Shown in pieces: positions 15,594 through 53,256 of a stretch of 56,321 bases of DNA. Every line of letters begins with the position of its first letter. Positions within the stretch are counted from its first letter, which is position 1. The DNA comes from Acidobacteriota bacterium (GTDB lineage Bacteria > Acidobacteriota > Vicinamibacteria > Vicinamibacterales > JAMQPK01): positions 1 to 56,321 of the forward strand of contig JANNJO010000029.1 of the NCBI GenBank assembly GCA_031395755.1, written 5' to 3'. A program made the translations under genes and the position numbers. Under the pieces are notes generated by a model, which was not told where the DNA came from, made no database searches, and saw only the letters and a list, made by a program, of their open reading frames with translations.

Positions 15594-16874
15594 GTGGGAA
15601 TGTCCCAAGCCCGCGTGGCCGTCCTGCGGACCAGTCCGGAGACCGTTCTCCGGGACTACCATCGTCTGCTGAACCTCGCCGGGTACCAGAACGTCATCGC
15701 CAAAGATGCCGACACGGCGCTGAAAGTCAACATCTCGTGGCACTTTTTCTTCCCCGGCAGCTCGACGACGCCCTGGCAGCTCGAGGGCGTGATTCGGGGG
15801 ATGAAGAAAGACGGCTACTCGCCCGAATTGATCCACGCGTGCCACAACCGCACGGTCGTCATCGATGCGCGCCTCGGCGAGCGCGAGAACAAGCAGCTTC
15901 CGGTGATCGAGGCGCATGGTCTGCGCAACATCCACACTTACGAAAGCGAAGAGTGGATCAACATCCGCGACGCGGTGGGCGACCTGACGAAGGAGTTTCT
16001 CTGCCTGAACGAGGTCTACCCGCAGGGCTTCATGATTCCGCGCCGGTTCATCGGCGAAAACATCATTCATCTCCCGACGGTTAAAACGCACGTCTTCACG
16101 ACGACGACCGGGGCAATGAAGAACGCGTTTGGGGGGCTGCTCAACGAGCGCAGGCATTGGACGCACCCCGTCATCCATGAAACGCTCGTCGATCTGCTGA
16201 TGATTCAGCAGAAGATCCACCGCGGAGTCTTCGCGGTGATGGACGGGACGTTCGCCGGCGACGGCCCGGGCCCGCGCTGCATGATCCCTTGCGTGAAGAA
16301 CGTGATTCTCGCCAGCGCCGACCAGGTCGCCATCGACGCGATTGCCGCCAGGCTGATGGGGATGGATCCGCTATCGATCAAGTTCATCCGCCTGGCGCAT
16401 GAGCGAGGCCTTGGCTGCGGCGATCCCCGCGACATCGAAATCGTCGGCGATCAGGACGCGGCCGCCGAGAATTGGCATTTTGCGGGGCCGTTCCGGAAGA
16501 TGACCTTCGCGGCCCGCATGCAGCACAAGATCTATTGGGGGCCATGGCGCAAGCCGGTCGAATGGTCCTTGAAAACCGTTCTCGCCCCCTGGGCGTACGC
16601 CGCCAGCGTGGTGTACCACGACAGCTTCTGGTACCCCTTGAAAGCGAAGGGGTTGATGCGCGAAGTGATGGAGAGCCCGTGGGGCAGGTTATTCCGCGGC
16701 TGGGAATCGGCGGTCGCTGATGAGAGCGGCTATCCCAAGGTGGGCGGCGAGCCGGCGGACATCGAGCGCACGGGGCTGAGGGCGCTCGTCCGATCGATCG
16801 GAATTCTGGGAACGTGCCTGAAGGAAGCACCTGAGTTTGCGGCGCGCCGGCGGGTCCAACACACGAAGGTATGA
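15594..16874 (+). CDS. DUF362 domain protein
   Basis: VAVLRTSPETVLRDY...LKVNISW, LPTVKTHVFTTTTGAMKNAFGGL, DGTFAGDGPGP, ILASADQVAIDAIAARLMG follow the DUF362 pattern. The start could be GTG 15594 or ATG 15600. Confidence 0.7.
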   Translation: MGMSQARVAVLRTSPETVLRDYHRLLNLAGYQNVIAKDADTALKVNISWHFFFPGSSTTPWQLEGVIRGMKKDGYSPELIHACHNRTVVIDARLGERENKQLPVIEAHGLRNIHTYESEEWINIRDAVGDLTKEFLCLNEVYPQGFMIPRRFIGENIIHLPTVKTHVFTTTTGAMKNAFGGLLNERRHWTHPVIHETLVDLLMIQQKIHRGVFAVMDGTFAGDGPGPRCMIPCVKNVILASADQVAIDAIAARLMGMDPLSIKFIRLAHERGLGCGDPRDIEIVGDQDAAAENWHFAGPFRKMTFAARMQHKIYWGPWRKPVEWSLKTVLAPWAYAASVVYHDSFWYPLKAKGLMREVMESPWGRLFRGWESAVADESGYPKVGGEPADIERTGLRALVRSIGILGTCLKEAPEFAARRRVQHTKV

Positions 16875-16931
16875 GGGCAGAGGGCAGAGGGCAGAAATAC
16901 ATCTGCCCTCTGCCCTCCTACCTCTGCCCTG
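16873..16931. repeat. heptamer-repeat hairpin, (GAGGGCA)3 facing (TGCCCTC)n
   Basis: 16880..16895 pairs perfectly (16 bp) with 16902..16917 around the loop AATACA. A further 6 bp (16874..16879 with 16925..16930) follows after a 7-nt bulge. It overlaps the DUF362 stop and ends 17 nt before the next start codon. There is no U-tract. Confidence 0.85.
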
Positions 16932-16947
16932 TCTCTATCGAGTGACT

Positions 16948-17994
16948 ATGGCAGATTTCAACATCCGGACAGACGCGGTCGACGTCGAGCAGATCATGCG
17001 CCAGATTCGGGCGCGGATTCACGAAAAGCGGGGCGTCGACTACACCGAGCAGCAGATTCAGGAGCTCGCGAACGTCAAGCTCGAGCGGTTTCTCGATCCC
17101 AAGGGCGTTCGCTCAGACCTCGTCGAGCAGTTCAAGCGACGGCGCGAGGAGAAGCTCGAGCCGTTCCACCTTCATCCCGAGGCGTCGCGCGGTTTTGACG
17201 CGGAGATGCTCTATGGGACGCATCGCGGCATCCTTCGGCTGATCCGCCGTCTGCTCAATCCGATCCTGAAGCTCTTCTTCAATCCGAACACGATCATTCA
17301 TGCGCTTCACAAGCAGAGCGACATCAACGCGCTCTACGAGGGGCAGTTCAACTTCCTCCGGGATAAGAGCCAGCAGCGCGATGACGTCGACGTGCTCTAC
17401 TACGAACTGGTGCACAACCTGGTGCTCGAGCTGACGCGGGTCGGCATCGAGAACCGGAATCTGAAGATGCGGCTCGAGTCTCTATCCAGCCGGATGGACT
17501 TTGATGAGCGGCGCGCGCGCGCGCTCGAAGGGGTGGTCCAGTTTCGGCCCGGCACGGGGCCTGCGCGCGAACCGGTTCAACAGCCGGCCCGATCGTTCAG
17601 CCCATCGGAACCGCCACCGCCCCAACCGGCGGCGCCTTCACAACCGGCCGCACAGCAGGCACAGCAGGCGCCGCAGGCACCGGCGCAGGGAGGTCAGGCT
17701 GCACAGCCACAACTCGACGCAGGCCCCGGCGCCGGCAACGACGACCAGGGCGGCGAATCCGGCACCGCGCGCCGGCGACGCCGGCGCCGACGCGGACGCC
17801 GCGGCGGTCGCGGCCGCACGCCCGGTGACAACGCCGCAGCGTTGACCGATGTCTCGTCATCCGGGAATTCGGCCGCGCCGCCGCATGGCGATCCCACTGC
17901 ACACGCCGCACGAGGGAACGACAGCGATGAAATGGGGCTCGCCGCCGATGCTGATCCGGGCGAAGACGAAGGGCCGGACCCCTCAGAGCAGTGA
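16948..17994 (+). CDS. hypothetical protein: helical N-terminal domain plus disordered P/A/Q-rich, poly-Arg and acidic tail
   Basis: Start chosen at MADFNIRTDAVDVEQIMRQIR (ORF track starts at 16837, inside the hairpin). The C-terminal half contains AQQAQQAPQAPAQ and RRRRRRRGRRGGRGR. The stop overlaps the GTG start of the next glycosyltransferase (GTGA). No family was recognised. Confidence 0.6.
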   Translation: MADFNIRTDAVDVEQIMRQIRARIHEKRGVDYTEQQIQELANVKLERFLDPKGVRSDLVEQFKRRREEKLEPFHLHPEASRGFDAEMLYGTHRGILRLIRRLLNPILKLFFNPNTIIHALHKQSDINALYEGQFNFLRDKSQQRDDVDVLYYELVHNLVLELTRVGIENRNLKMRLESLSSRMDFDERRARALEGVVQFRPGTGPAREPVQQPARSFSPSEPPPPQPAAPSQPAAQQAQQAPQAPAQGGQAAQPQLDAGPGAGNDDQGGESGTARRRRRRRRGRRGGRGRTPGDNAAALTDVSSSGNSAAPPHGDPTAHAARGNDSDEMGLAADADPGEDEGPDPSEQ

Positions 17995-19283
17995 AGCTGG
18001 CGATCGTGGTGCAACGCTACGGCGCCGACATCAACGGCGGCGCCGAGCTGCACGCGCGCTACGTCGCCGAACACCTCTCGCGGCATGCCGAAGTGGAAGT
18101 GCTCACGACGCGGGCCCGTGATTACGTCACGTGGCGTGATGAATACCCGGCAGCCATCGAGCAGGTCAACGGCGTTCCGGTGCGCAGGTTTCCCGTCGAC
18201 CACGAGCGCGACGTCACCGTGTTCGGCCGATGGTCGGAGCTCGTCTTCGGCCAGCAGCACTCGTACCTCGACGAGTTGAAGTGGCTCGATGCCGAGGGGC
18301 CGAAGAGCACGTCGCTGCTGTCGCACGTTCGCTCTGCGCAGGCCGCCTACGACTACGTCTTTTTTTTCAGCTACCGGTACTACCACGCCTACCATGGGGT
18401 GCGTGCGGTGCCGTCGCGCGCGATTCTGGTGCCGACGGCAGAACGCGACCAGGCCATCGGCCTGGCCATCTCGCCACGTATTTTCCGCGGCGTGCGGGCG
18501 CTCATGTACAACAGCCCCGAAGAGCGGCGGCTGATTCAGACCGTGTCGAACAATCACGACGTGCCGGGCGTCGTTGTGGGCATCGGCTCCGCGATTCCCG
18601 AACGACCGCAGGCAGAGCGCTTTAGGCAGAAGTACGGGATCGCGGGCCGTTTTGCGCTGTACGTCGGGCGCATCGATCAGAACAAGGGCTGCAAAGAGCT
18701 GTTCTCGTTCTTCTTGAATGGGCTGCAGGCACTGCCAAGAGGGCTGCGACTCGTGCTGATCGGAAAGGAAATCCTGCCCATCCCCGAGCACCCGCGCATT
18801 CTCCATCTGGGATTTCTCGACGATCAGGATAAGTTCGATGCGCTCGCCGCGGCCGATCTGCTGCTGATGCCGTCATATTATGAAAGCCTCTCGATGGTCG
18901 CACTCGAGGCGTGGGCGCTCGGCAAACCGGTGCTGGCGAACGGCAAGTGCGAGGTGCTCCGGGGACAATGCATCCGGAGCAAGGCGGGCCTTTACTACGA
19001 AACGCAGGCGGAGTTCATCGAGACGCTGCGCGCCATCGCGGAGAGCCGCGGCCTGAACGCGGCATTCGGCGCGAACGGCCGCCAGTTCTTCCAGCAGCAT
19101 TATTCCTGGCCGGTCATCGAGCAGAAGTATCTGGATATGCTGCAGCGGCTGAAGGAAGAAGATGGAAAGGGCCGGACGCGGGGCATGGAGGCCGAGCCGG
19201 GCTTCTTTGCCAGACGCCGCCGAACCCTCCGCGCAGCCATCGACGTGGTATCGGAGCTTCCATCCGGACCGGTGTTGAATTGA
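17991..19283 (+). CDS. glycosyltransferase family 4 (GT-B), paralog type A1
   Basis: MKLAIVVQRYGADINGGAELHARYVAEHLSRH.EVEVLTT.A.DY..W; C-terminal ESLSMVALEAWALGKPVL (E-x7-E region). Alignable by eye with 21574.. and 26456... Confidence 0.8.
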   Translation: MKLAIVVQRYGADINGGAELHARYVAEHLSRHAEVEVLTTRARDYVTWRDEYPAAIEQVNGVPVRRFPVDHERDVTVFGRWSELVFGQQHSYLDELKWLDAEGPKSTSLLSHVRSAQAAYDYVFFFSYRYYHAYHGVRAVPSRAILVPTAERDQAIGLAISPRIFRGVRALMYNSPEERRLIQTVSNNHDVPGVVVGIGSAIPERPQAERFRQKYGIAGRFALYVGRIDQNKGCKELFSFFLNGLQALPRGLRLVLIGKEILPIPEHPRILHLGFLDDQDKFDALAAADLLLMPSYYESLSMVALEAWALGKPVLANGKCEVLRGQCIRSKAGLYYETQAEFIETLRAIAESRGLNAAFGANGRQFFQQHYSWPVIEQKYLDMLQRLKEEDGKGRTRGMEAEPGFFARRRRTLRAAIDVVSELPSGPVLN

Positions 19284-20506
19284 AGCCCAGGATTCATCAG
19301 GTTCTCGCCACGCTCGGCTATGGAGACGCCATTGGCCACGAAGTGCTGGGCATTCAGCGCGTCCTGAAAGGCGCCGGGTTCGAATCCGACATCTTCGTGC
19401 AGACGGCGGACCCTCGCCTCGAGGACCTGACGAAGGATTACCGCGATCTGCTGCAGGCGAGCGACCCGTCCAATATTCTCATCCATCATTTCTCCATCGG
19501 ATCCCGGGCCTCGCGCGTCGCCTACGCCGTTCCCGATCGGCAGATCCTCGTCTACCACAACATCACGCCTCCGGAGTTCTGGGTCAACGTGCACGAACAG
19601 CTCGCGGAGCAGTGCTTCAAGGGGCGGCGGGAGCTCGGTATCTACCCCGCCCGGGTCGATCTCGCGCTCGGCGATTCGGAGTTCAACCGGCAGGAGCTCG
19701 ACGCGCTCGGGTTCAATCCGACGGGCGTGCTGCCTGTCGTGCCGGACTTCTCACATCTGGATGCCGGCGCGAACGATTTGATCACCACGGAGTTCGACGA
19801 CGAGTGGACCAACATTCTCTTCGTGGGCCGCATCATCCCGAACAAGCGCATCGAAGACGTGATCCGGTACTTCCACGCGTATCAGCGGCATTTCAATCCG
19901 CGGTCGCGGCTGCTGCTGGTCGGCTCCTATGGCGGTTTCGACAAATACCTCGCGATGCTTCAACAGCTCGTCGCTCGCCTGGGCGTCGCGAACGTGCACT
20001 TCACGGGGCATGTCACCGATGCCGAGCTCACCGCTTACTACGAGATCGCCGATCTATTTCTCTGCGCGAGCGCGCATGAGGGCTTCTGCGTCCCGATTAC
20101 CGAATCTTTCTATAAGCAGGTTCCCGTCGTGGCTTACGGAGCCACGGCGGTGCCCTCCACGATGGACGGTGCCGGCGTGCTGTTCACCACGCAGGAACCG
20201 CTCGAGGTCGCGGCGATCGTCGATGCGATCGTCGACGACGAGGAGTTGTGCGACCGCATCGTGCGCGGACAGGATGCGGCGCTCCAGCGCCTTCGGGCGA
20301 AGGACTTTGACGGTACGCTGCTGCGGTACGTGGACGCCGTGCTGAACACGCCGAGGAAACCTGCGCCCCAGATTGCCTGGGACTTCTGGGATCAGTTCCG
20401 GCAGGCAGAGGAGCTTTACGAGCTTCAGCAGTACCGTCCGGCGATCTTCCGCGGGCTGCCGGACAGCCCTGAGTCAAAGACCGGGCTCGTCGAGGAAAAG
20501 CGCTGA
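19280..20506 (+). CDS. glycosyltransferase family 4, paralog type B1
   Basis: A TTG start at 19280 (4-nt overlap with the upstream stop) gives (M)KPRIHQVLATLGYGDAIG, colinear with the MRVHQWVPAAHRGDAIG start of the next gene. FVGRIIPNKRIED, HEGFCVPITESF. The ORF-track start 18911 lies inside the upstream gene. Confidence 0.75.
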   Translation: MKPRIHQVLATLGYGDAIGHEVLGIQRVLKGAGFESDIFVQTADPRLEDLTKDYRDLLQASDPSNILIHHFSIGSRASRVAYAVPDRQILVYHNITPPEFWVNVHEQLAEQCFKGRRELGIYPARVDLALGDSEFNRQELDALGFNPTGVLPVVPDFSHLDAGANDLITTEFDDEWTNILFVGRIIPNKRIEDVIRYFHAYQRHFNPRSRLLLVGSYGGFDKYLAMLQQLVARLGVANVHFTGHVTDAELTAYYEIADLFLCASAHEGFCVPITESFYKQVPVVAYGATAVPSTMDGAGVLFTTQEPLEVAAIVDAIVDDEELCDRIVRGQDAALQRLRAKDFDGTLLRYVDAVLNTPRKPAPQIAWDFWDQFRQAEELYELQQYRPAIFRGLPDSPESKTGLVEEKR

Positions 20507-21567
20507 TGCGCGTGCATCAGTGGGTGCCGGCGGCACACAGGGGCGACGCCATAGGCGACAGCGCGCGCCGGGTGCGCGATTTCCTTCGCGCCATGGGACA
20601 CGACTCCGAGGTCTTCGCCCTGGCGATAGACGACGACCTGCGCCACGACGTCCGGCCCTTCTCGGACCCGGCGGCGAAGCGCGGCGACGTAACCATCTTT
20701 CATTTCGCCCTGCCCTCCCCGATGTCCGCGGCGTTTGCGTCGCTCTCCCACGGCCGGGTGCTTCAGTACCACAACGTGACGCCTGCGCGGTTTTTCGCGC
20801 CGTACGCACCGTCGCTGTTTCGTCTGGCATCCATTGCCCGGACGGAGCTGGCGAGCCTGGTCTCCGCGACCGATCTGGCGCTCGGTGATTCCGCATACAA
20901 CCGCCAGGAACTCGATGAGCTCGGGTTCTCGCGAACCGGCATCATGCCGATCGCCGTTGACACCGACCGGCTCACGATGGCCCCCCGCCAGCCCGTGCTT
21001 GAAGAGATTCTGGATGACGGTCTCGTCAATTTTCTGTTCGTCGGCAGGATTGCGCCCAACAAGAGGATTGAGGATCACATCAGGCTGGCCGAACAGTACA
21101 AGCGGTACGTCGACGCTTACTATCGGTTCATTTTCGTGGGGCGCTACGACGTTGTGCCGCAGTACTATGCGGCGATCCGCGCGCTGCTGGCCGAGTACCA
21201 GATGCTGGAAGACCGCTTCATCTTTACCGGGCCGGTGCCCGATGCCGAGCTGGCCGCCTACTATCGCGCGTCGAGCGTGTATATCTCGCTCAGCGAGCAT
21301 GAGGGATTCTGCGTGCCTCTGGTGGAGGCGATGGCCATGGACGTGCCGGTGCTGGCGTACAGCGCGGCGGCGGTGCCCGATACACTTGGCGGGGCCGGCG
21401 TGCAGTTCGCCCCCAAGGATCTGGAGTACGCGGCGGAACTCCTGGGCATGCTGGCCTTCGAGGAGAGTCCGCGGGATCAGGTGCTCGCCGGCCAGCGCCG
21501 GCGGTTGCAGGATTTCGCCGAGCCGGCAATTCAGAAGCAGCTCGTCTCGGTATTGTCAGCGTTCTGA
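20506..21567 (+). CDS. glycosyltransferase family 4, paralog type B2 (tandem duplicate of B1)
   Basis: FVGRIAPNKRIED, HEGFCVPLVEAM; ATGA overlap with B1. Confidence 0.8.
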   Translation: MRVHQWVPAAHRGDAIGDSARRVRDFLRAMGHDSEVFALAIDDDLRHDVRPFSDPAAKRGDVTIFHFALPSPMSAAFASLSHGRVLQYHNVTPARFFAPYAPSLFRLASIARTELASLVSATDLALGDSAYNRQELDELGFSRTGIMPIAVDTDRLTMAPRQPVLEEILDDGLVNFLFVGRIAPNKRIEDHIRLAEQYKRYVDAYYRFIFVGRYDVVPQYYAAIRALLAEYQMLEDRFIFTGPVPDAELAAYYRASSVYISLSEHEGFCVPLVEAMAMDVPVLAYSAAAVPDTLGGAGVQFAPKDLEYAAELLGMLAFEESPRDQVLAGQRRRLQDFAEPAIQKQLVSVLSAF

Positions 21568-21573
21568 CCCCCA

Positions 21574-22797
21574 GTGAGAATCGCCTTCATCGTCCAGCGA
21601 TACGGCGTTGAAATTCTCGGTGGCTCGGAGTACCACTGCCGGCTCATTGCCGAGCGGATGGCCCGCAAACACGACGTCGACGTCGTCACGACCTGCGCGC
21701 GTGATTACATCAGGTGGGAGAACCACTATCCGGAGGGCACCGAACGCGTTCACGGCGTAACCGTTCGGCGCTTCGCGAACGCCCAGACCCGCGATATCGA
21801 CGCTTTCAACCGATACTCAGACTGGATCTTCCATCATCCCCATACGCGCGAAGATGAGATGTCGTGGCTGAAACAACAGGGTCCATGGTGTCCGGCGCTC
21901 ATTGAGTATCTACACGGGCACCATCACTCGTACGACGTGTTGATCTTCTTCACGTACCTGTACGCGCCAACGGTGCTCGGCCTGGAGATCGACCCCGCCA
22001 AGAGCATCCTCGTGCCGACCGCGCACAGGGAACCGGCCATCGGGCTCGACATCTACAAGGCGATGTTCACGAAGCCGTCCGCGATTGCGTTCAATACGGA
22101 GGTCGAGAAGGCTTTTTTGAAGGACACCTTCGACATCCGGGCGCAGGGTGAAGAAACGGTGGGCTGCGGAGTGGATCTGCTTTCAGAGCCGTCGCGGCCG
22201 AGTCTTCCGGATCCCCAGGACTCTCCTCTCGAGTTCTGCCACCGCCACGGCTTCGATGGGCCGTTTCTGCTGTACGGGGGCCGCATCGACGCCGGCAAAG
22301 GGTGCGACGAGCTGATCGACTACTTCACGACCTACCGGGACCAGGGCGGAGACGCGGTGCTGGCGTTGATGGGCGCCAAGTTGATGGCGCTGCCTGCGGT
22401 TCCGTGGGTGCGTTTTGTCGGGCTGTTGTCCGAGCGGGAGCGCCTGCGAGCGCTCGAAGCGGCGACAATCGTCGTCGTGCCGTCTCCGCTCGAGAGCCTT
22501 TCTCTGCTCGCGCTCGAAGGGATGGCTGTCGGCAGGCCTGTGTTGTGCAACGCGCGCGCTGATGTGCTGGTGGACCACTGCAAGCGGAGCCATGCCGGGC
22601 TGTTCTACTCTGATCGCGAGGAGTTCGTGGAGTGCGCGAACCTGCTCCTCGCCGATCGGCAGCTGCGCGAGCGCATGGGACATCGCGGCCAGGCGTACGT
22701 CAGGCAGCACTACCATTGGGACGTGATCCTGTCGAAGTACGACAACCTCATCGCGGCGCTGCCGAAGCCGGCCCCGGACAGCCAGGCACGAAGGTGA
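21574..22797 (+). CDS. glycosyltransferase family 4, paralog type A2
   Basis: MRIAFIVQRYGVEILGGSEYHCRLIAERMARKHDVDVVTTCARDYIRWENHYPEG; ESLSLLALEGMAVGRPVL. Confidence 0.8.
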   Translation: MRIAFIVQRYGVEILGGSEYHCRLIAERMARKHDVDVVTTCARDYIRWENHYPEGTERVHGVTVRRFANAQTRDIDAFNRYSDWIFHHPHTREDEMSWLKQQGPWCPALIEYLHGHHHSYDVLIFFTYLYAPTVLGLEIDPAKSILVPTAHREPAIGLDIYKAMFTKPSAIAFNTEVEKAFLKDTFDIRAQGEETVGCGVDLLSEPSRPSLPDPQDSPLEFCHRHGFDGPFLLYGGRIDAGKGCDELIDYFTTYRDQGGDAVLALMGAKLMALPAVPWVRFVGLLSERERLRALEAATIVVVPSPLESLSLLALEGMAVGRPVLCNARADVLVDHCKRSHAGLFYSDREEFVECANLLLADRQLRERMGHRGQAYVRQHYHWDVILSKYDNLIAALPKPAPDSQARR

Positions 22798-25059: not shown

Positions 25060-25075
25060 GAGAAGTCCCGCTCGC

Positions 25076-26410: not shown

Positions 26411-26455
26411 AGGAATTTATGTCGCATGCTAGCATAGACCTCTTGACCTCATAAC

Positions 26456-27751: not shown

Positions 27752-27762
27752 GTCATGTAAAT

Positions 27763-28094
27763 GAGAAGGAAGAAGTAGGAAGTAAGACGGGGAACCGTAA
27801 CTGAAATTTCAACTTCGACCTCGAGCGGCGTTTGCGCGCGCGGTTTGTAGGGCGGTCCCGAAAATCCTTCGCAGTTGTTGTGCTTCCAACAGCAACTCGG
27901 TATCCGATGCGACATCAGCGTCTCGCATGTATTCGAGCCACACGACTGATTCGTCCACTTCTTCGACCACTGTTCCCAGTTTTGCGATGAACTCGGCGCG
28001 CGACCGTCCGCGCTGGGCCGCATGGTAATTCAGCGAAGCAACCGGATGGATCGCAGTTCTGCACTCCCTTCTTCCTTCTCCCTTCTTCCTTACT
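27763..28094. repeat. split heptamer-repeat element: purine-unit arm (27763..27786) and pyrimidine-unit arm (28064..28094) bracketing a gene remnant
   Basis: The left arm is GAGAAGG AAGAAGT AGGAAGT AAG. The right arm is CTCCCTT CTTCCTT CTCCCTT CTTCCTT ACTCC. 27763..27775 is the exact reverse complement of 28068..28080 (13 nt). The right arm overlaps the response-regulator stop codon. Confidence 0.6.
27809..28060 (-). pseudogene. truncated four-helix-bundle protein gene (23S rRNA intervening-sequence protein / Avd family)
   Basis: My own minus-strand translation gives RTAIHPVASLNYHAAQRGRSRAEFIAKLGTVVEEVDESVVWLEYMRDADVASDTELLLEAQQLRRIFGTALQTARANAARGRS* (stop at 27809..27811). This matches the ..GANYR.A.RARS.AEFI.KL.IV.EE.DET.YWLELL.. 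core of the family. There is no start codon and about 50 N-terminal residues are missing. It is not in the supplied ORF track; ORF 27688..28023 is a different frame. Confidence 0.7.
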
Positions 28095-29541
28095 CCGGTA
28101 CAGATACCGCCTCCCTCTCGCCGCTCTCCTGCTCCGCTCTCGATTCGCTCGTCCGCTTCCGTCGCGGCCGGATGTCGTAACGCTTGATCATTTCGTTCAA
28201 CGTCGTCGGCTTGATTCGGAGAAGCTCCGCGGCGCGCTTCTGAACGCCGCCGGCCGCCTCGAGGGTCGACTCGATGAGGCGCTTCTCAAAATCGGTAATC
28301 ACGTCCTTGAACGAAATGCCTTCCGGCGGAACAACGAATCGCGGCATCTGGAAGATCGTGGGCCGCCCGATGTGATCGGGCAGCAGATCGGGACCGATAC
28401 GGCGGCCGGTCGAAAGAACCACGGCTCGCTCGATCACGTTTTCCAGCTCCCGGACGTTGCCGGGCCAGTCGTAGGACATCATGATATCCAGCGCGTCGGG
28501 CACCAGCTCGAGGTCCGGCTTGCGATTTTCCTCGCCGTACTTCTCGATGAAGTGCTGCACGAGCAGCGGAATATCGTCCTTGCGATCGCGCAGAGGCGGC
28601 AGCACCACGTTGACGACGTTCAGCCTGTAGAAGAGATCCTCGCGAAAGCGCCCCTCCTCCATCGTCTTCTTCAGGTCCACGTTGGTGGCGGCGACAATCC
28701 GCACATCGACCTTGATGACTTCCATGCCGCCCAGGCGCATGAACTCCCGCTCCTGCATGACGCGGAGCAGCTTGGCCTGAGTCTCGAGCGGGATGTTGCC
28801 GATTTCGTCGAGGAAAATGGTTCCCTTGTCCGCGAGGTCGAAGAGCCCCTTCTTGGGGTAGACGGCGCCGGTAAACGCGCCTTTCACGTGCCCGAAGAGC
28901 GTCGACTCCAGCAGATCGGGCGGAAGGTTGCCCGAATTCACCGTCACGAAAGCGCGGTCTTTCCGCTGCGAGTGCGTGTGAATCGCGCGCGCGACGAGCT
29001 CCTTGCCAGTGCCGCTCTCGCCCTGAATGAGGATCGTCGAACGGCTCGGCGCCGCCTGGATGATCAGGTCGAACACCCGGCGCATCGCCGGACCGCGCCC
29101 GACGATGTTGTCGAAGTGGCTGTACTGTTCCTGGATGTTCTGCCGCAGCGGGCGATTCTCGTTGACCAGGCGACGGAGACCGAGGGCGTTCTTGACGACC
29201 ACCATCACCTCGTCGTTCTTGAACGGCTTGGTGATGTAGTCGAAGGCCCCGCGCTTCATCGACGTGATGGCATTCTCGACCGATGCGTACGCCGTCACCA
29301 TGATGACCGCCAGCTCATCGTCCAGCTTCTTGAGCGATTCGAGCGTGGTCATCCCATCAATGCCGGGCATCATGAGGTCGACAATCGCGGCGTCGAACGG
29401 GATATTGCGCGCCAGCTCGATGCCTTCCTCTCCGCTGGCGGCGAGACGCACGGAGTACCCCTCGCCCTTCAGCAGGGTTTCGAGGATCTCGCGCATGATT
29501 TCTTCGTCGTCGACTACGAGAATCGAACCATTCTTCTGCAT
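28090..29541 (-). CDS. sigma-54-dependent response regulator (NtrC family)
   Basis: Receiver domain ILVVDDEEIMREIL...DLMMPGIDG. AAA+ domain GESGTGKELVARAIH with GAFTGA. C-terminal Fis-type HTH AAELLRIKPTTLNEMIKRY. Start chosen at MQKNGS, 9 nt after the kinase stop. Confidence 0.9.
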   Translation of the reverse strand: MQKNGSILVVDDEEIMREILETLLKGEGYSVRLAASGEEGIELARNIPFDAAIVDLMMPGIDGMTTLESLKKLDDELAVIMVTAYASVENAITSMKRGAFDYITKPFKNDEVMVVVKNALGLRRLVNENRPLRQNIQEQYSHFDNIVGRGPAMRRVFDLIIQAAPSRSTILIQGESGTGKELVARAIHTHSQRKDRAFVTVNSGNLPPDLLESTLFGHVKGAFTGAVYPKKGLFDLADKGTIFLDEIGNIPLETQAKLLRVMQEREFMRLGGMEVIKVDVRIVAATNVDLKKTMEEGRFREDLFYRLNVVNVVLPPLRDRKDDIPLLVQHFIEKYGEENRKPDLELVPDALDIMMSYDWPGNVRELENVIERAVVLSTGRRIGPDLLPDHIGRPTIFQMPRFVVPPEGISFKDVITDFEKRLIESTLEAAGGVQKRAAELLRIKPTTLNEMIKRYDIRPRRKRTSESRAEQESGEREAVSVPE

Positions 29542-29549
29542 ATGCTCAC

Positions 29550-37000: not shown

Positions 37001-39870
<2,870 letters not shown>

Positions 39871-39873
39871 GGA

Positions 39874-39939
39874 GTAGGGATTGGTGATTGGGGACTAGCT
39901 CTGCCCGCTAGTCCCTAATCCCTGGTCCCCAATCCCTGC
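39874..39939. terminator. heptamer-repeat hairpin filling the convergent gpmI / small-ORF spacer (candidate bidirectional terminator)
   Basis: Left units are AGGGATT GGTGATT GGGGACT AGC. Right units are GCT AGTCCCT AATCCCT GGTCCCC AATCCCT. The inner stem 39886..39899 pairs with 39907..39920 (14 bp including one G:T), with a 7-nt loop. The outer stem 39876..39884 pairs with 39929..39937 (9 bp), separated by an internal loop. There is no clean U-tract. Confidence 0.6.
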
Positions 39940-39940
39940 T

Positions 39941-40258: not shown

Positions 40259-40475
40259 TGATTGATCCTCCATCTCGGGGCTCAGACCCCTACAAGTGGT
40301 GTTCTCGGGTGGGCGTATCGCAATCGAATTCCCGCCTACACCATTGGCTCGACAGGAATCTGTCCACCTGCTCGGTCATTTTTTCAGAATAACGGTCTCG
40401 GGAAAGGACGAGTTTCATTGTAGGCCCGTGATTCTGTGGTGTCAAGAAACGATAGAATCCCCAGTACTGCCTTAT

Positions 40476-42029: not shown

Positions 42030-42116
42030 GCCGCGTTGGGGCCCCACCCCCAACGCGCTGCCGTCGCTGACGCTCCGGATCTTGATACCATCGCTTGTCT
42101 GCTTAGCTATCGCGCC

Positions 42117-44679: not shown

Positions 44680-44781
44680 GGTGACTGATACGAGCGGCGT
44701 CGCAGGACGGTTCCCATCTTACATGGCGATCAACAGATTCCCCACAACGCATCACATCGGAATACCACGAACCGGTAACGA

Positions 44782-47099: not shown

Positions 47100-47140
47100 C
47101 TCATAATTTCGGCACGCCGGACCGGGTCCGGTAGGCGGTA

Positions 47141-49147
47141 CTAGCCCGCCTCCTCGTACTCGGTCTTCAATTTGGCAATCACGCTGGGATCGGCCAGCGT
47201 GGTGGTATCGCCCAGCGCCTTGCCTTCGGCGATATCCTTCAAAAGGCGCCGCATGATTTTGCCCGAGCGGGTCTTGGGAAGATCCGCTGCGAAGAGAATG
47301 TCCTCGGGCCGCGCGATCGCCCCGATTTTCTTGACAACATGCTCTTTGAGCTCAGCCATCAGCGCCGGGCTCGCGACGTTCCCTTCCTTCAGGATGACGA
47401 ACGCTGAAATGGCCTGCCCCTTCAGCTCGTGCGCGCGGCCGACGACGGCGGCCTCCGCCACTTTCGGGTGATCGACGAGCGCGCTCTCGATTTCCATCGT
47501 CCCGATCCGATGTCCCGCCACGTTAATCACGTCGTCCACGCGGCCGAGCACCCAGAAATATCCGTCTTCGTCGCGCTTGGCGCCATCGCCCGTAAAGTAC
47601 GTGGCGCGATCCCATTTGCTCCAGTACTGCGTCACGAAGCGCTCGGGATCGCCGTAGATTCCTCGAAGCATCGCGGGCCACGGCCGGGTCAGCGCAAGGA
47701 GCCCGCCCCCGACTGCAATCGGCTCGCCGGATACCGTCCGGATTTCTGCTTTGATGCCTGGAAAGGGCTGCGTCGCAGAACCCGGCTTGAGCCGCGTGAT
47801 CCCAGGCAGCGGCGTGATCATGATCATTCCGGTCTCCGTCTGCCACCACGTGTCGACGATCGGGCACCGCTCGCCGCCGATGTTCTTGTGGTACCAGATC
47901 CACGCTTCGGGGTTGATGGGCTCACCAACCGATCCCAGCAGCCTCAGACCCGACAGGTTGCGGCGCTTCGGCCAGTCGGTGCCCCACTTCATGAACGCGC
48001 GGATCGCCGTCGGCGCGGTGTAGAAGATGGTCACGCCGTACCGCTCGATGATCTCCCACAGCCGGTCTTTCTGCGGCCAGTCCGGTGCCCCTTCGTACAT
48101 CACGACAGTGGCGCCGTTGGCGAGAGGGCCATAGACAACATAACTGTGGCCCGTGACCCACCCGATATCGGCGGTACACCAGTATACATCGTCTTCCTTA
48201 AGATCGAAGACCCACTTCGCCGTCGCGTACGTGCCGGTGAGATATCCGCCGGTCGTGTGCATGATGCCCTTGGGCTTCCCCGTCGTGCCGGACGTGTAAA
48301 GAATGTAGAGAAGGTCTTCGGAGTCCATCGGCTCGGGCGCGCAGTCCAAGGGTGCCTTCGCAAGTAGCTGATGCCAGTCATGCTCGCGCACTTGACGGGC
48401 TTCTGGCTCCGGGCTTCGGACTTCCGGCCTGGAGTCTGGAGCCTGGAGCCTGGAGTCCGCTGCCTGGAGTCTGCGAAGCACGATCATGTGTTCAATCGAA
48501 GGCGTACCTTCGACGGCTTCGTCCGCGATTTTCTTGAGCGGCACGACCGAGCCCCTTCGATATCCACCATCGGCGGTCACGAGCACCTTGCACTGGGCGT
48601 CGTTGATGCGGTCGCGCAGCGACTCGGCGCTGAATCCGCCGAACACAATGCTGTGCGGCGCGCCGATCCGCGCGCAGGCGAGCATCGCGATAGCGAGCTC
48701 GGGCACCAGGGGCATGTAGATCGCCACGCGATCGCCCTTTCTGACCCCGAGCGATTTCAGGACGTTGGCACACGCGCTGACCTGGCGGTAGAGATCGAAG
48801 TACGTGAGCGTCCGGCGATCGCCGGGCTCGCCTTCCCAGATGATGGCGGCTTTGTTCCGGCGCGCGGTCTTGACGTGTCGATCGACGCAATTGACCGACG
48901 CATTGATCTGACCGCCGACGAACCACTTCGCATGCGGTGGATTGGTCCAGTCGAGAACCTTCGTCCACGTGCGGGTCCACTCGAGCTCGGACGCAAACTT
49001 CGCCCAGAAGCCTTCGTAATCACGCTCGGCTTCTTCGTAGGGTGTCGTGTCGCCGACGATGGCCGTTGCGCGGAACTCGGAGGGGGGCTCGAACACGCGG
49101 TCCTCATGGAGGAGCGCCGAAATTTCGGGATCGACTGGGTCGGACAT
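47141..49147 (-). CDS. acs: acetyl-CoA synthetase
   Basis: [14 protein letters not shown]-binding motif, [31 protein letters not shown]. 668 aa, with an extra repeat-encoded loop (see 48396..48475). Confidence 0.95.
48396..48475. repeat. heptamer-repeat imperfect hairpin inside the acs coding sequence, in frame
   Basis: GGCTYCN units (48398..48427) face CTGGAGY units (48428..48475). 48396..48427 pairs with 48428..48459 as 24 Watson-Crick pairs, 6 G:T pairs and 2 mismatches out of 32 (my hand count). It encodes [26 protein letters not shown] on the minus strand. Confidence 0.8.
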
Positions 49148-49167
49148 GGAGGAAGAATACTGGAAAA

Positions 49168-50262
49168 TTACCTGCCGAGACTATCGACGCGCTTCCGTAC
49201 TTCTCCAACCAAGGCGGGGTAGCCGGCGGCACCATGCTGCAGGAACGCGCGATAGTGAACGAGTGCCCGATCTCTGTTGCCCGTCTCGTCTTCGAGCAGC
49301 GCAAAGTTGTAGTGCGCCTCGGCGTTGCGCGTGTCGATCTCCAGCGCGCGGACGAGCGCGGCGCGGGCGCCTTCGCGGCGCCCCGCTTCTCTCTCGACCG
49401 TCGAGAGGTTCACAAGCGACTCGACGTTCCTGGAATCGATCGCCAGCGCCGTGTGGAACTCTGACGCAGCCATATCCAGCTTGCCCTGATTCAGGTAGGC
49501 CACGCCGAGGTTGTTGCGCGCCCGCGCGTAACGCGGTTCGATGGCGATGGCGCGCTGAAATTCCTTGACGGCGTCCTCCACAAGCCCCTTGTCGCGATAC
49601 AGCAGCCCCAGGTTGTTGTGCGCTTCGGCGTTGAGGTCGTCGCGCTGCAGCAGCTGCTTGTAATGGAAGAGCGCGTTGGCGAAGTCGCCCATGCGCTGGT
49701 ACATGAGGGCACGCCCAAAATGGTCCTCGCCGGTCGTGACCGTCGCGCTGCTGACACCGGCCGCCGTGGACAGCGCGGTGCGTGACGGCGCGCCCGTCGG
49801 CGGCGTCGGCGCACTCGCCGACACCTCGGGACGCCGCGAGGTCTGAACGATCGGCTGAGTGGCAGGAAGCCTGTCGGCAGCGGCCGCAGGCGGCGGCTTG
49901 GCCGCGGATGATTGGGGTGCGACAAGTGCGATCGGTGCGGCGGGTGCGACAGGCTTGCCCGCCGTAGCGCCTGAAGGCGCGGAGGCGGGCGGTGCCGAGG
50001 CGGGGGCGTTGTACACCACCGTCGGATTCGGCGTCAGATACGCCTTCGCCGTCCAGATGACGACGGCCCACAACACGATCGCGCACAGGAGACCGGCCGC
50101 CAGATAGCCAAGGAAACGTTTGAGTCGACTGGACGGCGAGGCAGGGTTGAATCGCCCATAGCCGAGCGTCTGCAGGACGACGTCGGTTTGCGCCGCATTG
50201 GGATTGGGTCGCGACATCTCTGGTCCACGCCCGCGACGCAGCGCGTCAAGGATGATGCTCAT
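49168..50262 (-). CDS. GspB/ExeB-like N-terminus, TM segment, P/A-rich linker and TPR repeats (MshN-like)
   Basis: [13 protein letters not shown] is the characteristic GspB-type N-terminus. One TM ([18 protein letters not shown]). About 5 TPR units ([42 protein letters not shown]...). Confidence 0.65.
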
Positions 50263-50271
50263 TACTCCTGG

Positions 50272-51624
50272 TTAGTCCTCGATCACATACGCGTCGCTGA
50301 ACGCAGCCATCTCGTGCAGCCGGACGGCTTCGGCTTTCGCCTCCGCCAGCGTCGCGAACGTGCCTACCAGCACGCGGCGCCATTCGCCTCGCGCGCGCAA
50401 ATCCACGTCCTCCAGCCGGACATCGTAGCCCTGGCCCTGCAGCTGCCGCAACGCGGCCTCGAGCCGCGCACTCGCCGCTGAGTCGGCGCGCGACACGTCC
50501 GCCATCGGAATCGAGGCCGCGAGTACCGAATATCGTGGTGCCGGCTGTTCCGCCGCCGGCGTCAATTGTTCCGGCGCCGGCGCGGGGGCGGCGTCAACGG
50601 ACGCTGCGGCCGGAACAGGCGCCTCCACGTGAAACGTCTCCGGCGCAGGCGCTTCCGTATCAGCAGTGGCCGAGGCACGGAGAACGGGCGCCACGAAGCT
50701 ACCCGCCACGGCTAGCGAGACCGTCGCACCTGCTGCGGCAACCACCACCGAGGCGCGGCGGCGAAACCAGCCGAAGCGTGAAGGCCGGTCTTCGACCAGC
50801 TCGAGATTCTCGGCGGCCTGATACACCATGTCCGGCGACACACGGTTGGCGCGTGCGGAGTACGCCGCGAGCAGCGAGCGATCGCACACGAGGTTCACCA
50901 GCCGCGGAATGCCGCCCGTCCGCCGGTGCACCATGTCGAGCGCCTTCGGCTGGAACGTCACCGACGCGGATCCGCCGGCGATCATCAGACGATGAGACAC
51001 ATACGACGCCACTTCGTCGCGGGTCAACGGGCGCAGCTGATAGCGGATGGAGACGCGCTGATCGAGCTGGCGCATCTGCGGCGCCTTCAGCAGCGGCTGA
51101 AGGTTCAGCTGTCCCACGAGCACGATCTGCAGCAGCTTGTCCTTGTCGGTCTCGAGGTTCGACAGGATGCGAATCTGCTCGAGCACGGGGATCGGGAGGT
51201 TCTGCGCTTCGTCGATGATCAGCACGGCGGTGGCGCGCAGGGGCAGCAGGCTGAGCAGAAAATCGTAGATGGCCTCGATCAGCTCCTGCTTGCTGACGTT
51301 CGCGAGGCGGCCTCGCTTGACGTCTTCGCGTGACACGACGCCGAAGTCCTGCAGAATCAGCTTCAGCAGATCTTCCTCGGAAAGGAACGGGTTCAGCACG
51401 AGCGCCGTGAACGTGTTCCTGTCGATCTCCTCCAGCAGCACGCGGCAGAGAGTGGTCTTGCCGGTGCCGATGTCGCCGGTGATGACGACGAACCCTTCGC
51501 GGCGGCGAACGGCGTACTGAAGCAGCTCGTACGCATTGGCGTGCGACTCGCTCTTGAAGAGATACTTTGGGTCCGGCGTCAGGCTGAACGGCTTTTCGGT
51601 GAACCCGTAATAGTCTTCGTACAT
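50272..51624 (-). CDS. ExeA/GspA/MshM-like AAA+ ATPase with a TM segment and a C-terminal SPOR domain
   Basis: YYGFTEKPFSLTPDPKYLF, Walker A GDIGTGKTT, Walker B LIIDEAQNL. TM VVVAAAGATVSLAVAGSF. The C-terminus YSVLAASIP...GYDVRLEDVDLRARGEWRRVLVGTFATLAEAKAEAVRL fits a SPOR fold pattern. Confidence 0.75.
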   Translation of the reverse strand: MYEDYYGFTEKPFSLTPDPKYLFKSESHANAYELLQYAVRRREGFVVITGDIGTGKTTLCRVLLEEIDRNTFTALVLNPFLSEEDLLKLILQDFGVVSREDVKRGRLANVSKQELIEAIYDFLLSLLPLRATAVLIIDEAQNLPIPVLEQIRILSNLETDKDKLLQIVLVGQLNLQPLLKAPQMRQLDQRVSIRYQLRPLTRDEVASYVSHRLMIAGGSASVTFQPKALDMVHRRTGGIPRLVNLVCDRSLLAAYSARANRVSPDMVYQAAENLELVEDRPSRFGWFRRRASVVVAAAGATVSLAVAGSFVAPVLRASATADTEAPAPETFHVEAPVPAAASVDAAPAPAPEQLTPAAEQPAPRYSVLAASIPMADVSRADSAASARLEAALRQLQGQGYDVRLEDVDLRARGEWRRVLVGTFATLAEAKAEAVRLHEMAAFSDAYVIED

Positions 51625-51633
51625 ATCGTTCTC

Positions 51634-53112
51634 CTAACGAACGCGTTCCAGCTCTTTGGCGACAGACGGCGCCACGCGCGCGGGGGTCATGATCGTCGGC
51701 GTCAGCAGAATCACGAGATCGGTCTTGCGGCGGCTCATCGTCTCGCCGCGGAAGATGGCGCCGATTCCCGGCAGGTCGCCGAGGAACGGCACCTTTCGTA
51801 CCTCGCGGCGCAGCCGCTCCTCCATCAGGCCTGCAATGACGATCGTTTCCTTTTCGTGAACGCGCACCATCGTGTCCGCCTCGCGCACGCTGAGAATCGG
51901 CACCGTGTCCCCGAACCGCGAGGTGGCCTGACCCGTCCGCTCGGTCAGACTCGGCGTGATGCTCATGTTGATCATGCCGTCGCTTGAGATCTGTGGCGTG
52001 ACGCTCAGCACGACCCCCTCCGTAATCGCCTGCGGCTCGACCGTCGTCTGAAGAATCCGTCCCGACACGCCGTCGGTCTGCGTTGTCGTCCTGAAGAACA
52101 CGTCCTGCGTGCCGACACGCATGATGGCGGGCTCGTTGTTGAGCGCGTTCACGGTCGGGCTGGCCATGACGTTGACTTTTCCTTGCGTGGCAAACGCGTT
52201 GAGGAGCCCGGTGAAGTCCTTGATGTTGAGGCCCGCGGTGAAGGTGCCGCCAGAGGTCGGCACGACGTTCTGCGTCAGCGATACCGCGTCGCCTGCGCGC
52301 TCGATGACGAGACTCCAGTTGATGCCGGCCGAGAACTCGTCGCTGAGCGTCACCTCGATGACCTTCGCCTGGATCTGCACCTGGCGCGTCGCGCGGTTCT
52401 GCACGGCTTCGAGATAGAGCTGGATCTGATCGAGCCGGTCTGGATAGTCGGTGGCCTGCAGCAAGGCCGCCTTCTTGTCCATGTTGAAGCGCCCGTCGGG
52501 CGACAGCAGCGTCTGCACACCGGCAGACACGTCGCTGAAGATGTCGCCGTTGTCCGAGCCGGTGACCTCCGCCGAGCTCCCCTGGCCGCCGGCCTGCGTT
52601 CCCGGATTCATTCCCGACGCGCCTGACGGCGTAATGGAGTTCGAGGCGGCCAGCGTGCGCGACCCCGAGCGGCGTGTCACGACGTAGTTCAGGTCGAAGC
52701 GGCGTGTTTCAAATCGGCGCTTGAACACGCGGATGACGTTCCCCTGCATCGAGTAGTCGAAACCATGCGGCTGCAGGATCATCTCGAGCGCCTGACGCAG
52801 GGTGACATCTTTGAGGTCGCCGCGAAACGTGCCCTGCACGTCCGGGTCGGGCACGACGCTGAGCCTCGTGTCCCGAACGAGCATGAGCAGCAGATCGGTG
52901 ATGGGCGTCGAATCGGAAAGCGTGATCGTGACAGGACGCGTACTGTCGAGATCGCTTCCCTGCTGGCGCTCGTCGAGTTGGGTCACCGCGAGCGGCCGAA
53001 GCGGCGTCTGGCTGGTTTGGGCCGGCGGCGCCGGCACCTGAGCGGCGCCCTGGACGGTTGCCATGAGCAGCACCGCCACCGCGCCGATGCGGATCCGCCG
53101 AATCACAAACAC
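51634..53112 (-). CDS. secretin (GspD/PilQ/MshL family)
   Basis: Signal peptide. Secretin C-domain VMASPTVNALNNEPAIMRVGTQ, VLSVTPQIS, VPFLGDLPGIGAIFR, DLVILLTPTI. Confidence 0.85.
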   Translation of the reverse strand: MFVIRRIRIGAVAVLLMATVQGAAQVPAPPAQTSQTPLRPLAVTQLDERQQGSDLDSTRPVTITLSDSTPITDLLLMLVRDTRLSVVPDPDVQGTFRGDLKDVTLRQALEMILQPHGFDYSMQGNVIRVFKRRFETRRFDLNYVVTRRSGSRTLAASNSITPSGASGMNPGTQAGGQGSSAEVTGSDNGDIFSDVSAGVQTLLSPDGRFNMDKKAALLQATDYPDRLDQIQLYLEAVQNRATRQVQIQAKVIEVTLSDEFSAGINWSLVIERAGDAVSLTQNVVPTSGGTFTAGLNIKDFTGLLNAFATQGKVNVMASPTVNALNNEPAIMRVGTQDVFFRTTTQTDGVSGRILQTTVEPQAITEGVVLSVTPQISSDGMINMSITPSLTERTGQATSRFGDTVPILSVREADTMVRVHEKETIVIAGLMEERLRREVRKVPFLGDLPGIGAIFRGETMSRRKTDLVILLTPTIMTPARVAPSVAKELERVR

Positions 53113-53182
53113 TACGAGCGCACTCCCACGACAGATATTTCGGTCCTTCGAGAGCTAAACGATAGGAAGCGGAGGACTTTAT

Positions 53183-53256
53183 GGGGTTCAGGGGTTGGGG
53201 ATTAGGGATTGGGGATTAGGGATTAGGGATTAGGGACTAGGGCTTAGGGATTAGGG
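53183..53256. repeat. tandem heptamer array, (GGGATTR)n, about 10.5 units, one-armed
   Basis: The units are GGGGTTCA GGGGTTG GGGATTA GGGATTG GGGATTA GGGATTA GGGATTA GGGACTA GGGCTTA GGGATTA GGG. There are eleven G3-4 runs with 4-nt spacers. No complementary arm lies nearby. It sits between the ino1 stop (53304) and the secretin start (53112). Confidence 0.9.

Follow-up and report, generated by a model that had tools for sequence, protein, structure and literature searches.

Tandem heptanucleotide hairpins at gene ends in a Vicinamibacterales contig and their likeness to the repeat stems around four-helix-bundle genes

Introduction

The DNA analyzed here, referred to as the window, comprises positions 1-56,321 of contig JANNJO010000029.1 (assembly GCA_031395755.1), from a soil acidobacterium, and has a G+C content of 60-66%. 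It contains five loci built from tandem 7-nt units, four at gene ends and one within the acs gene. A sequence-only reading of this DNA had described them as a class of hairpins that share period, layout and position at gene ends while the unit differs from locus to locus. The class is real and recurs in related contigs with yet other units. Three findings go beyond that reading: locus 2 encloses the remnant of a gene of the four-helix-bundle family known from 23S rRNA intervening sequences (IVSs), arrays of 7- or 8-nt units bracket genes of this family across phyla, and the arms have a common polarity with the G-rich arm first. The loci are accordingly read here, with a probability of roughly 0.55, as IVS-type repeat-stem elements outside rRNA, with or without a gene as cargo.

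An excess of heptamer repeats was noted in cyanobacteria as early as 1990 and in a wide range of bacterial genomes in 2007, but we know of no agreed explanation for its cause or its role. The same applies to rRNA intervening sequences, as regards both their origin and what their four-helix-bundle open reading frame (ORF) does.

Materials and Methods

Arrays were detected with Tandem Repeats Finder (TRF). Hairpin stability was assessed by folding both strands, with z scores calculated against 200 shuffles. Stringent arrays in the window were counted against 20 dinucleotide shuffles, and periods were compared among the best TRF rows of 822 kb comprising the window and related contigs, of which the relatives alone make up 766 kb. 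The relatives consist of three acs neighborhoods (L001-L003) and 80 relatives of the gene between loci 1 and 2 (L004-L083). For the survey of four-helix-bundle genes, an alignment of 44 full-length proteins led to 80 loci from named genomes, to which L084-L088 were added to give 85 genes. An Rfam scan of the window matched no family and no rRNA, the flanks of the loci being protein-coding genes, and searches for exact copies of the inositol-phosphate synthase encoded in the window and of protein P0194 returned no match. The window acs protein has hundreds of close homologs, and those with names belong to Vicinamibacterales or Acidobacteriota.

Results

Heptamer loci of the window

TRF confirmed all five loci with the positions and units that the sequence-only reading had given (Table 1). 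The first unit of locus 1 overlaps the TGA stop codon of a DUF362 gene, and the next ATG (16948) follows 17 nt past the hairpin. This locus folds with -47.4 kcal/mol (z -6.9) on one strand and -46.9 kcal/mol (z -7.2) on the other, values that none of the 200 shuffles equaled, and its arms can pair in several registers offset by 7 nt. Locus 3 begins at the TAG stop codon of an iPGM gene, and at its other end 2 nt separate it from the stop codon of a small convergent gene (39941); its folds of -45.5 and -40.7 kcal/mol (z -7.8 and -5.9) were likewise matched by no shuffle. At locus 4 the strand antisense to acs folds with -53.3 kcal/mol (z -4.9) and the other strand with -34.3 kcal/mol (z -1.7). 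Locus 5 lies between two minus-strand genes, those for inositol-1-phosphate synthase and secretin, and no fold was found for its single arm. A further, weak array takes up all 26 nt that separate two co-directional genes and is a candidate sixth member of the class, with one arm only.

Table 1. Repeat loci of the window and their parts. Positions refer to the forward strand; unit numbers are those of TRF where indicated.
Feature	Positions	Strand	Description
Locus 1	16868-16928		hairpin without cargo
Locus 1, 5' arm	16873-16895		(GAGGGCA)x3.3, 100% matches (TRF); followed by a 6-nt loop
Locus 1, 3' arm	16902-16930		(TCTGCCC)x4.1 (TRF)
Locus 2	27752-28089		338-nt insert between the convergent stop codons of the glycosyltransferase (GT4) and sigma-54 response-regulator genes
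Locus 2, G/A-rich arm	27763-27791		GAAGNAR units
Locus 2, gene remnant	27809-28057	-	four-helix-bundle (23S rRNA IVS protein family) remnant; 5'-truncated, inverted relative to the intact copy in relatives
Locus 2, C/T-rich arm	28063-28096		CCTTCTT units (TRF); overlaps the response-regulator stop codon at 28090-28092
Locus 3	39868-39938		cargo-less hairpin, GGGATTG-type facing AATCCCT-type units; TRF row 39908-39938
Locus 4	48396-48473		repeats inserted in frame into a variable loop of the acs gene (47141-49147); TRF 48396-48428 and 48427-48473
Locus 5	53182-53256	+	one-armed (GGGATTR)x~10; TRF 53190-53256, AGGGATT x9.6
Candidate sixth member	8924-8949	-	(GACGATC)x3.7, one arm; TRF score 38 (weak)

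The unit dimers are confined to their own loci in the window, and a unit family is shared only by loci 3 and 5, as had been proposed. Units differ among the approximately 80 arrays of the relatives as well, and the copies do not collapse to one consensus. The expected excess over dinucleotide-shuffled sequence was found as well: three stringent period-7 arrays were counted in the window against 0.0 per shuffle, and none with periods 8-13. Among the best TRF rows of the 822 kb, period 7 leads with 50 rows, followed within its family by 20 rows for period 14 and 12 for period 21; the other periods gave 7 (period 8), 13 (period 10), 21 (period 11) and 10 rows (period 13). When the arrays of the related contigs were placed on a crude gene map, their density was 0.08 arrays/kb in coding sequence, 0.6-1.3 in co-directional spacers, 0.36 in convergent spacers and 0.13 in divergent spacers.

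The location of the loci immediately 3' of stop codons, in co-directional or convergent spacers, and the high stability of their stems are also what would be expected of ordinary intrinsic terminators whose stems are repetitive by coincidence. We give this explanation very little credence, as no T-run follows the stems (a pattern scan gave 0 sites at loci 1, 2, 3 and 5), locus 4 is intragenic, locus 5 has no stem and stems of 25-30 bp far exceed the typical length of a terminator. Equally improbable is a class of regulatory repeats that form G-quadruplexes (G4), as has been suggested for the heptamers of Xanthomonas and Nostoc. Locus 5 does present a GGG tract every 7 nt, ten times, GGG tracts occur at loci 1 and 3, and GGGAATC and GGGGATT oligonucleotides form G4 in vitro (PMC4692102). 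However, at least four consecutive GGG tracts are found only at locus 5; only three G tracts are present at locus 1, a series of tracts at least three nucleotides long is lacking at loci 2 and 4, most units around the genes described below (GAAGTAA, GATTTGC, GATCTGGT) are free of G runs, and paired arms favor the duplex. A CRISPR array was considered and rejected, since the 7-nt units stand head to tail and without spacers, compared with CRISPR repeats of approximately 23-47 nt that alternate with unique spacers.

A decayed four-helix-bundle gene at locus 2

The arm-loop-arm layout that had been described as shared by the loci holds for loci 1 and 3, but the arms of locus 2 (27766-27791 and 28066-28091; 81% complementary) are 274 nt apart and bracket a gene remnant instead of a plain loop. 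The remnant codes for a 'four helix bundle protein' that lacks its N-terminal third. It matches TIGR02436 with an E value of 1.4e-6 and 28.5 bits (cutoff 24) over profile positions 40-107 of 109, remains under the cutoff of PF05635 (14.5 against 33.8), and scores 122 bits over positions 44-116 of a hidden Markov model built in this analysis. It has 122 homologs, the closest with 83-92% identity, of 115-140 residues and many of them from named Vicinamibacterales. The nearest solved structure is 2RLD.

An intact copy of the gene, encoding 120 residues, was detected at the identical glycosyltransferase/response-regulator junction in L084-L086, contigs that derive from other samples. In these contigs the stop codon is followed by (GAAGTAR)n, a 7-nt loop, (TTACTTC)n, approximately 70 nt, the ORF, (YTACTTC)n and the stop codon of the convergent gene. 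The G/A-rich arm of locus 2 belongs to the unit family of the arrays in L084, L091 and L092. The cargo of the window is inverted with respect to the intact arrangement: positions 27765-28031 match L084 5141-5398 as reverse complement between collinear flanks, with the inversion breakpoints inside the arrays, and the gene has lost its 5' portion. This comparison shows a cargo that was evidently flipped by exchange between the arms and later partly deleted. Locus 2 is thus probably an IVS-type cassette consisting of two arms and a decayed cargo.

Most of the contigs that carry close homologs of the gene (P0121-P0240) are only 0.5-2 kb long, which suggests that short-read assemblies break at repeat-framed cassettes.

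Repeat arms around four-helix-bundle genes in many phyla

Among the 85 surveyed genes, an array lies within 350 nt upstream in 72 cases, downstream in 70 and on both sides in 60, the periods being 7, 8 or multiples thereof. The density of arrays of the 7-nt family is 2.10/kb within 250 nt of the gene and 0.198/kb beyond 400 nt, and that of the 8-nt family drops from 0.95/kb to 0.078/kb over the same distances; the corresponding values for all other periods are 0.65/kb and 0.42/kb. In 71 of 81 loci the upstream and downstream flanks were more complementary to each other than in any of 20 shuffles (median score 21 versus 8.5), and inverted arrays of 7- or 8-nt units flank approximately 88% of the surveyed genes. 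The surveyed loci represent more than 10 phyla and include Vicinamibacterales, Acidobacteriaceae/Terriglobales, Pyrinomonadaceae, Bacteroidota, Chlorobi, Verrucomicrobiota, Lentisphaerae, Nitrospirota, Chloroflexota, Planctomycetota, Patescibacteria, Bipolaricaulota and Binatia. In the cyanobacterium Planktothrix, heptamer hairpins flank the gene on both sides within a chemotaxis operon. In Xanthomonas campestris a GGGAATC array overlaps the start codon of XCC0516 (Rehm et al. 2015, PMC4692102), a crystallized family member whose solved structure is pentameric. The occurrence of a gene for the four-helix-bundle IVS protein between cas genes had already been reported.

The units around the gene vary by locus, with GATTnnn, GAnGTnn and GATCTGGT as recurrent families. 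Arrays next to the gene most often contain 4-5 units (54 of 146 arrays), whereas elsewhere the lengths are more spread and fall mostly into the bin of 2-3 units. Of the upstream arrays, 44 of 51 begin no more than 10 nt from the stop codon of the preceding gene. The idea that a period not divisible by 3 serves to close all three reading frames with stop codons was tried and rejected, as this is the case in 18 of 63 5' arrays compared with 20.8 expected after permutation of columns.

Cassettes with 8-nt units (L087, L088, L090, L136, L139, L140, L142 and L145) use, for example, GATCTGGT, AGATCTAC and ATTTGGTC, and similar 8-mers are present in both Vicinamibacterales and Nitrospiraceae. The Acidobacteriaceae cassettes (L093-L114) have a conserved stretch of approximately 90 nt between arm and ORF that contains a small hairpin, CACATTCTCGATGTGAG, and a promoter-like TTGAAA...TAGAAT pair; many of them carry a full hairpin on either side of the gene.

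Turnover at orthologous sites

Comparison of orthologous spacers revealed both presence/absence and variation in unit number. The contig L004, which shares 87-89% identity with the window along 19 kb, lacks locus 1 and reads TGA-AAC-CTGTCTC where the window has TGA, a hairpin of approximately 55 nt and CTGTCTC. The spacer at this junction measures -1 to 22 nt in 11 of 13 relatives and contains a repeat hairpin in none of the 13, so that locus 1 represents a derived gain. In L003 the two stop codons adjoin directly, with no locus 3 between them. The insert of locus 2 is missing in L004, where the two convergent stop codons are 3-5 nt apart. This glycosyltransferase/response-regulator junction is empty in L031 as well and holds differing elements in the window, L084, L032 and L036, the inserts of the last two being unrelated to that of the window and built from other units. 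The L036 insert is 252 nt long and has inverted period-7 arms (CTCGGCT... / GAGAGCC...) in which, unusually, the C-rich arm comes first; no four-helix-bundle gene could be recognized in it.

The array of locus 5 comprises 10 units in the window, 4 in L001 and 5 in L002 at the orthologous position and is absent from L003. In the same spacer, (GTAAGAA)x11.7 was gained directly 3' of the stop codon in L002 (5496-5577), and a period-9 array, GGTGCGATN x5.5, was gained directly 3' of the stop codon in L001 (5578-5630). Within acs, an older GGGCTTC-type arm (+ strand) is common to the relatives and encodes PE(V/A)(R/G)SP(E/K)PEA in frame, whereas the complementary CCTGGAG-type arm occurs only in the window lineage. 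The acs loop between 'RR' and 'HDWH' (proteins P0001-P0120) varies across the clade from 0 to approximately 17 extra residues, with recurring repeat-like peptides such as GSGLQASGSGPDQA.SPKS, a repeat-derived insert that persists in an enzyme. Unit numbers differ even among L084, L085 and L086, which are 99.5-99.6% identical over approximately 5 kb (4 substitutions) and contain 7, 6 and 4 units on one side of the gene and approximately 7, 5.6 and 11 on the other.

These alignments show unit numbers that shift through slippage between almost constant flanks, complete hairpins and cassettes gained in single lineages at junctions that measure only a few nucleotides in relatives, and, in the acs case, a second arm that arose beside an existing array. 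Unit-number shifts, gains and arm birth at orthologous sites support a local and fast mechanism. The local generating mechanism that the sequence-only reading had put forward fits the unit-number differences between nearly identical contigs, the 10/4/5 series at locus 5 and the new acs arm.

Clean presence and absence at orthologous sites would also be produced by non-autonomous elements of the repetitive extragenic palindromic (REP) or miniature inverted-repeat transposable element (MITE) kind, moved in trans by, for example, the IS200-type Y1 transposase encoded at the start of the window. At positions 28-598 there is an IS200/IS605-type Y1 transposase-like ORF (PF01797, E value 1.8e-10) with a hairpin of its own, a perfect 18-bp stem (549-566 and 580-597) that holds a period-11 direct repeat, ACCCCCGTACC x2.1. 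This ORF and its hairpin look like a pair of REP and REP-associated tyrosine transposase (RAYT), with a sequence unrelated to that of the heptamer hairpins. The REP-like distribution, with rarity between divergent genes, would suit mobile elements too. Still, this origin is quite unlikely, because the copies have no common sequence and no palindromic consensus of the kind that defines REP and bacterial interspersed mosaic elements (BIMEs), no target-site duplication typical of MITEs was seen between filled and empty sites of loci 1 and 2, the hairpin beside the Y1 gene is not heptameric, and the unit number varies within a single locus.

Two further features of the window were noted. Approximately 480 nt of L004 (3203-3682), the 5' part of a membrane-protein ORF, are absent from the window at about 15233, and the window ORF at 15222-15569 looks like a 5'-truncated copy of this L004 ORF. 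The segment 14640-15163, intergenic on the crude gene map, contains by eye a putative small S21-like ribosomal protein ORF and a putative CxxC zinc-ribbon ORF.

Polarity of solo and cassette hairpins

On the sense strand of the gene loci, the outer upstream arrays are poor in C (11% C) and the downstream arrays poor in G (10% G). As an inverted repeat reads alike on both strands, this base skew reflects a polarity of the hairpin as such, whose 5' arm is the G-rich one. Short-loop hairpins without a four-helix-bundle gene within 400 nt have more G than C in the first arm in 18 of 19 cases (p ~8e-5), and those next to the gene in all 11, which gives 29 of 30 combined; the G-rich arm is also first at loci 1-3 of the window. 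GAAGTAR units are found in solo arrays of L002 and L119 and around the gene in Vicinamibacterales. Solo hairpins and cassette stems thus share the period, the polarity, the abutment to stop codons and, in Vicinamibacterales, the GAAGTAR family.

These regularities bear on the view that the loci are pure by-products of mutation, in which slippage makes arrays in dispensable spacers, template switching at quasi-palindromes adds an arm, and neither element identity nor function is involved. The association with the gene would then reflect shared survival in permissive spacers, or the framing of any insertion by repeats soon after its arrival. Unit-number shifts and the birth of an arm were seen directly, units are locus-specific, arrays are far more numerous than genes, and the heptamer excess in many large high-GC genomes has been ascribed to polymerase slippage (Mrazek 2007, as reported in a paper citing it). 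This explanation deserves serious thought but is judged doubtful: coexistence alone can hardly account for the tenfold higher density per kb beside the gene, seen in more than 10 phyla, or for the inverted symmetry in 71 of 81 loci, and the G-first polarity in 29 of 30 hairpins, the mode of 4-5 units near the gene and the restriction to periods 7 and 8 point to constraint.

Discussion

Proposed IVS-type elements outside rRNA

We favor the reading of the loci as IVS-type repeat-stem elements because the same architecture brackets PF05635 / TIGR02436 genes across bacteria. The elements would form one class, with approximately 3-12 tandem 7-nt units (8-nt units in some relatives) placed in tight spacers at the 3' ends of genes, where an array usually faces a complementary array and gives a stem of 20-30 bp with the G-rich arm 5'. 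Loci 1 and 3 would then be cargo-less hairpins, locus 5 and perhaps 8924-8949 single arms, and locus 4 an in-frame copy in acs.

Several observations weigh against this assignment. The surveyed gene loci represent one subfamily, picked by two peptide patterns, and the gene map of the related contigs behind the position statistics is crude. The hairpin in acs is weak on the mRNA strand. Apart from locus 2, no other four-helix-bundle gene or remnant was found in the 766 kb of relatives, despite approximately 80 arrays of the period-7 family, and a search for remnants within or beside the solo hairpins of the same 766 kb yielded none, the one marginal match being spurious. Unit similarity follows protein similarity with a rho of 0.27 over all pairs, a significant correlation that vertical inheritance can account for; across phyla rho is 0.06, and 53 of 500 permutations were as high. 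The stems around the gene contain 200 G.U wobbles in the sense and 248 in the antisense direction, hence no asymmetry in favor of the sense RNA, and a duplex-energy version of this strand test was dominated by long GC-rich flanks.

With no remnants amid some 80 arrays, solo hairpins need not descend from cassettes. In view of the lack of remnants, of unit-protein tracking and of wobble asymmetry, the repeat-stem hairpin is treated here as the basic, abundant element and the gene as an occasional cargo. Likewise, only some rRNA intervening sequences carry an ORF.

The interpretation given by the sequence-only reading is partly supported, and slippage plus strand switching would drive the evolution of the heptamer hairpins. 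The second arm may arise by fold-back or template switching once a G-rich array has been synthesized, which would explain the fixed G-first polarity. When transcribed, the stem of approximately 30 bp might act in the manner of the Coxiella IVS stem, as a double-stranded substrate of an RNase III-type enzyme or as a 3'-end structure. Such a stem would insulate the insert from the flanking messages or stabilize 3' ends in the way of REP elements. A function of the heptamer hairpins as RNA stems is inferred from these parallels and stays conditional on them.

Comparison with known repeat systems

The closest parallel to locus 2 is provided by the 23S rRNA IVSs of Coxiella burnetii and Leptospira, in which terminal inverted repeats form a stem of approximately 28 bp around an ORF of the gene family seen at locus 2 (Warrier et al. 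2016; Ralph & McClelland 1993). In C. burnetii, the 5' arm of the IVS contains 2-3 tandem GACAGAT heptamers ahead of the S23p ORF, with a number that differs among strains (Warrier et al. 2016, PMC4990558); cleavage by RNase III takes place at the first heptamer, inside a 28-bp stem, and the ORF is decaying (PMC4990558). Locus 2 alone among the window loci contains an ORF of this S23p / PF05635 family, in truncated form, and its layout is IVS-like. The 23S rRNA IVSs differ in that they sit in helix 45 (or 9/25) of the 23S rRNA and are excised by RNase III, whereas the elements described here, as read from DNA sequence, lie between protein-coding genes, and most copies have no ORF.

Among solo arrays, the heptamers of Xanthomonas and Nostoc are the most similar. 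The sequence-only reading had supposed that such elements were undescribed for high-GC genomes, but Xanthomonas, with 65% GC, has approximately 185 GGGAATC arrays per genome, 70-75 of them as convergent inverted pairs adjoining gene ends, and Nostoc PCC 7120 has GGGGA(C/T)T heptamers (Rehm et al. 2015, PMC4692102). Both share with the loci of the window the tandem 7-nt units, a copy number that varies between close relatives, a mostly intergenic position near the end of the upstream gene and rarity between divergent genes, and the Xanthomonas host is high in GC as here. The 'convergent' pairs of Xanthomonas have the G-rich arm first, which is the polarity of the loci described here. In those genomes, however, one unit family dominates, while the units here are locus-specific and often contain no G tract, so that G4 formation cannot be the common denominator. 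The Xanthomonas unit, GGGNATC with at least one GGGAATC, is not found at the window loci, which instead carry GAGGGCA, GAAGNAR, GGGATTR and GGGCTTC/CTGGAGC. The link to the four-helix-bundle gene family was not drawn by Rehm et al. (2015; PMC4692102).

For the short tandemly repeated repetitive (STRR) heptamers of heterocystous cyanobacteria, the sequence-only reading gave the STRR1 unit as CCCCA(A/G)T. This unit is supported indirectly, as the reverse complement of the Nostoc GGGGA(C/T)T is a rotation of CCCCA(A/G)T, but the units here are one base off. Similarities include the period of 7 and the GGGATT(A/G) unit of loci 3 and 5, one base away from the Nostoc GGGGATT. Differences are the phylum, the small number of unit families used genome-wide and the mostly one-armed arrays of STRR; no locus of the window has an STRR unit, and the host, being a member of the Vicinamibacterales (Acidobacteriota), is not a heterocystous cyanobacterium.

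REP elements and BIMEs, together with RAYTs, are alike in being extragenic hairpins at the 3' ends of genes within operons, which suggests a comparable effect on mRNA ends, but they differ in their palindromic sequence, conserved within a genome, and have no basis in tandem repeats. The TAACTGA direct repeats of Beggiatoaceae, Cyanobacteria and Bacteroidetes are also intergenic tandem heptamers, in 2-6 or more copies and with a patchy distribution across phyla (PMC4679880). They differ by one fixed unit, a position mostly just upstream of start codons and an almost complete lack of inverted pairs, with one indirect repeat among 170 sets (MacGregor 2015, PMC4679880).

Heptamer simple sequence repeats, their excess in large high-GC genomes, inverted pairs at gene ends and the TAACTGA family are thus already known, as are IVSs with a four-helix-bundle ORF and the heptamers of the Coxiella IVS. 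A limited literature search retrieved no paper stating that inverted 7- or 8-nt arrays generally frame the four-helix-bundle gene family, beyond the remark on Coxiella, none stating that the units are locus-specific, and none stating that a G-first handedness is common to solo and cassette hairpins.

Implications

In practical terms, the elements appear to break short-read assemblies, most contigs with close homologs of the gene being approximately 1 kb long, and peptides encoded by the repeats can be inserted into enzymes, as in acs.

A more far-reaching and rather unlikely idea is that four-helix-bundle IVS proteins and repeat-stem hairpins together constitute a widespread, unrecognized selfish cassette system in which the protein acts on the 7-8-nt repeats. 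The protein, which we take to be a relative of Avd, the accessory factor of diversity-generating retroelements known as a pentamer, might bind approximately one unit per subunit or help a polymerase to extend two converging 3' ends with repeats; repeat addition to converging 3' ends would yield the G-first polarity. If this were true, solo arrays such as STRR, the Xanthomonas GGGAATC arrays and those of the window would be footprints of the system, and 23S rRNA IVSs would be the special case of cassettes that landed in rRNA.

Apart from that idea, the data tie the puzzle of the heptamer repeats to the IVS gene family: the same G-first stems of 7- or 8-nt units that frame the gene in many phyla occur without cargo at gene ends, and their turnover is very rapid.

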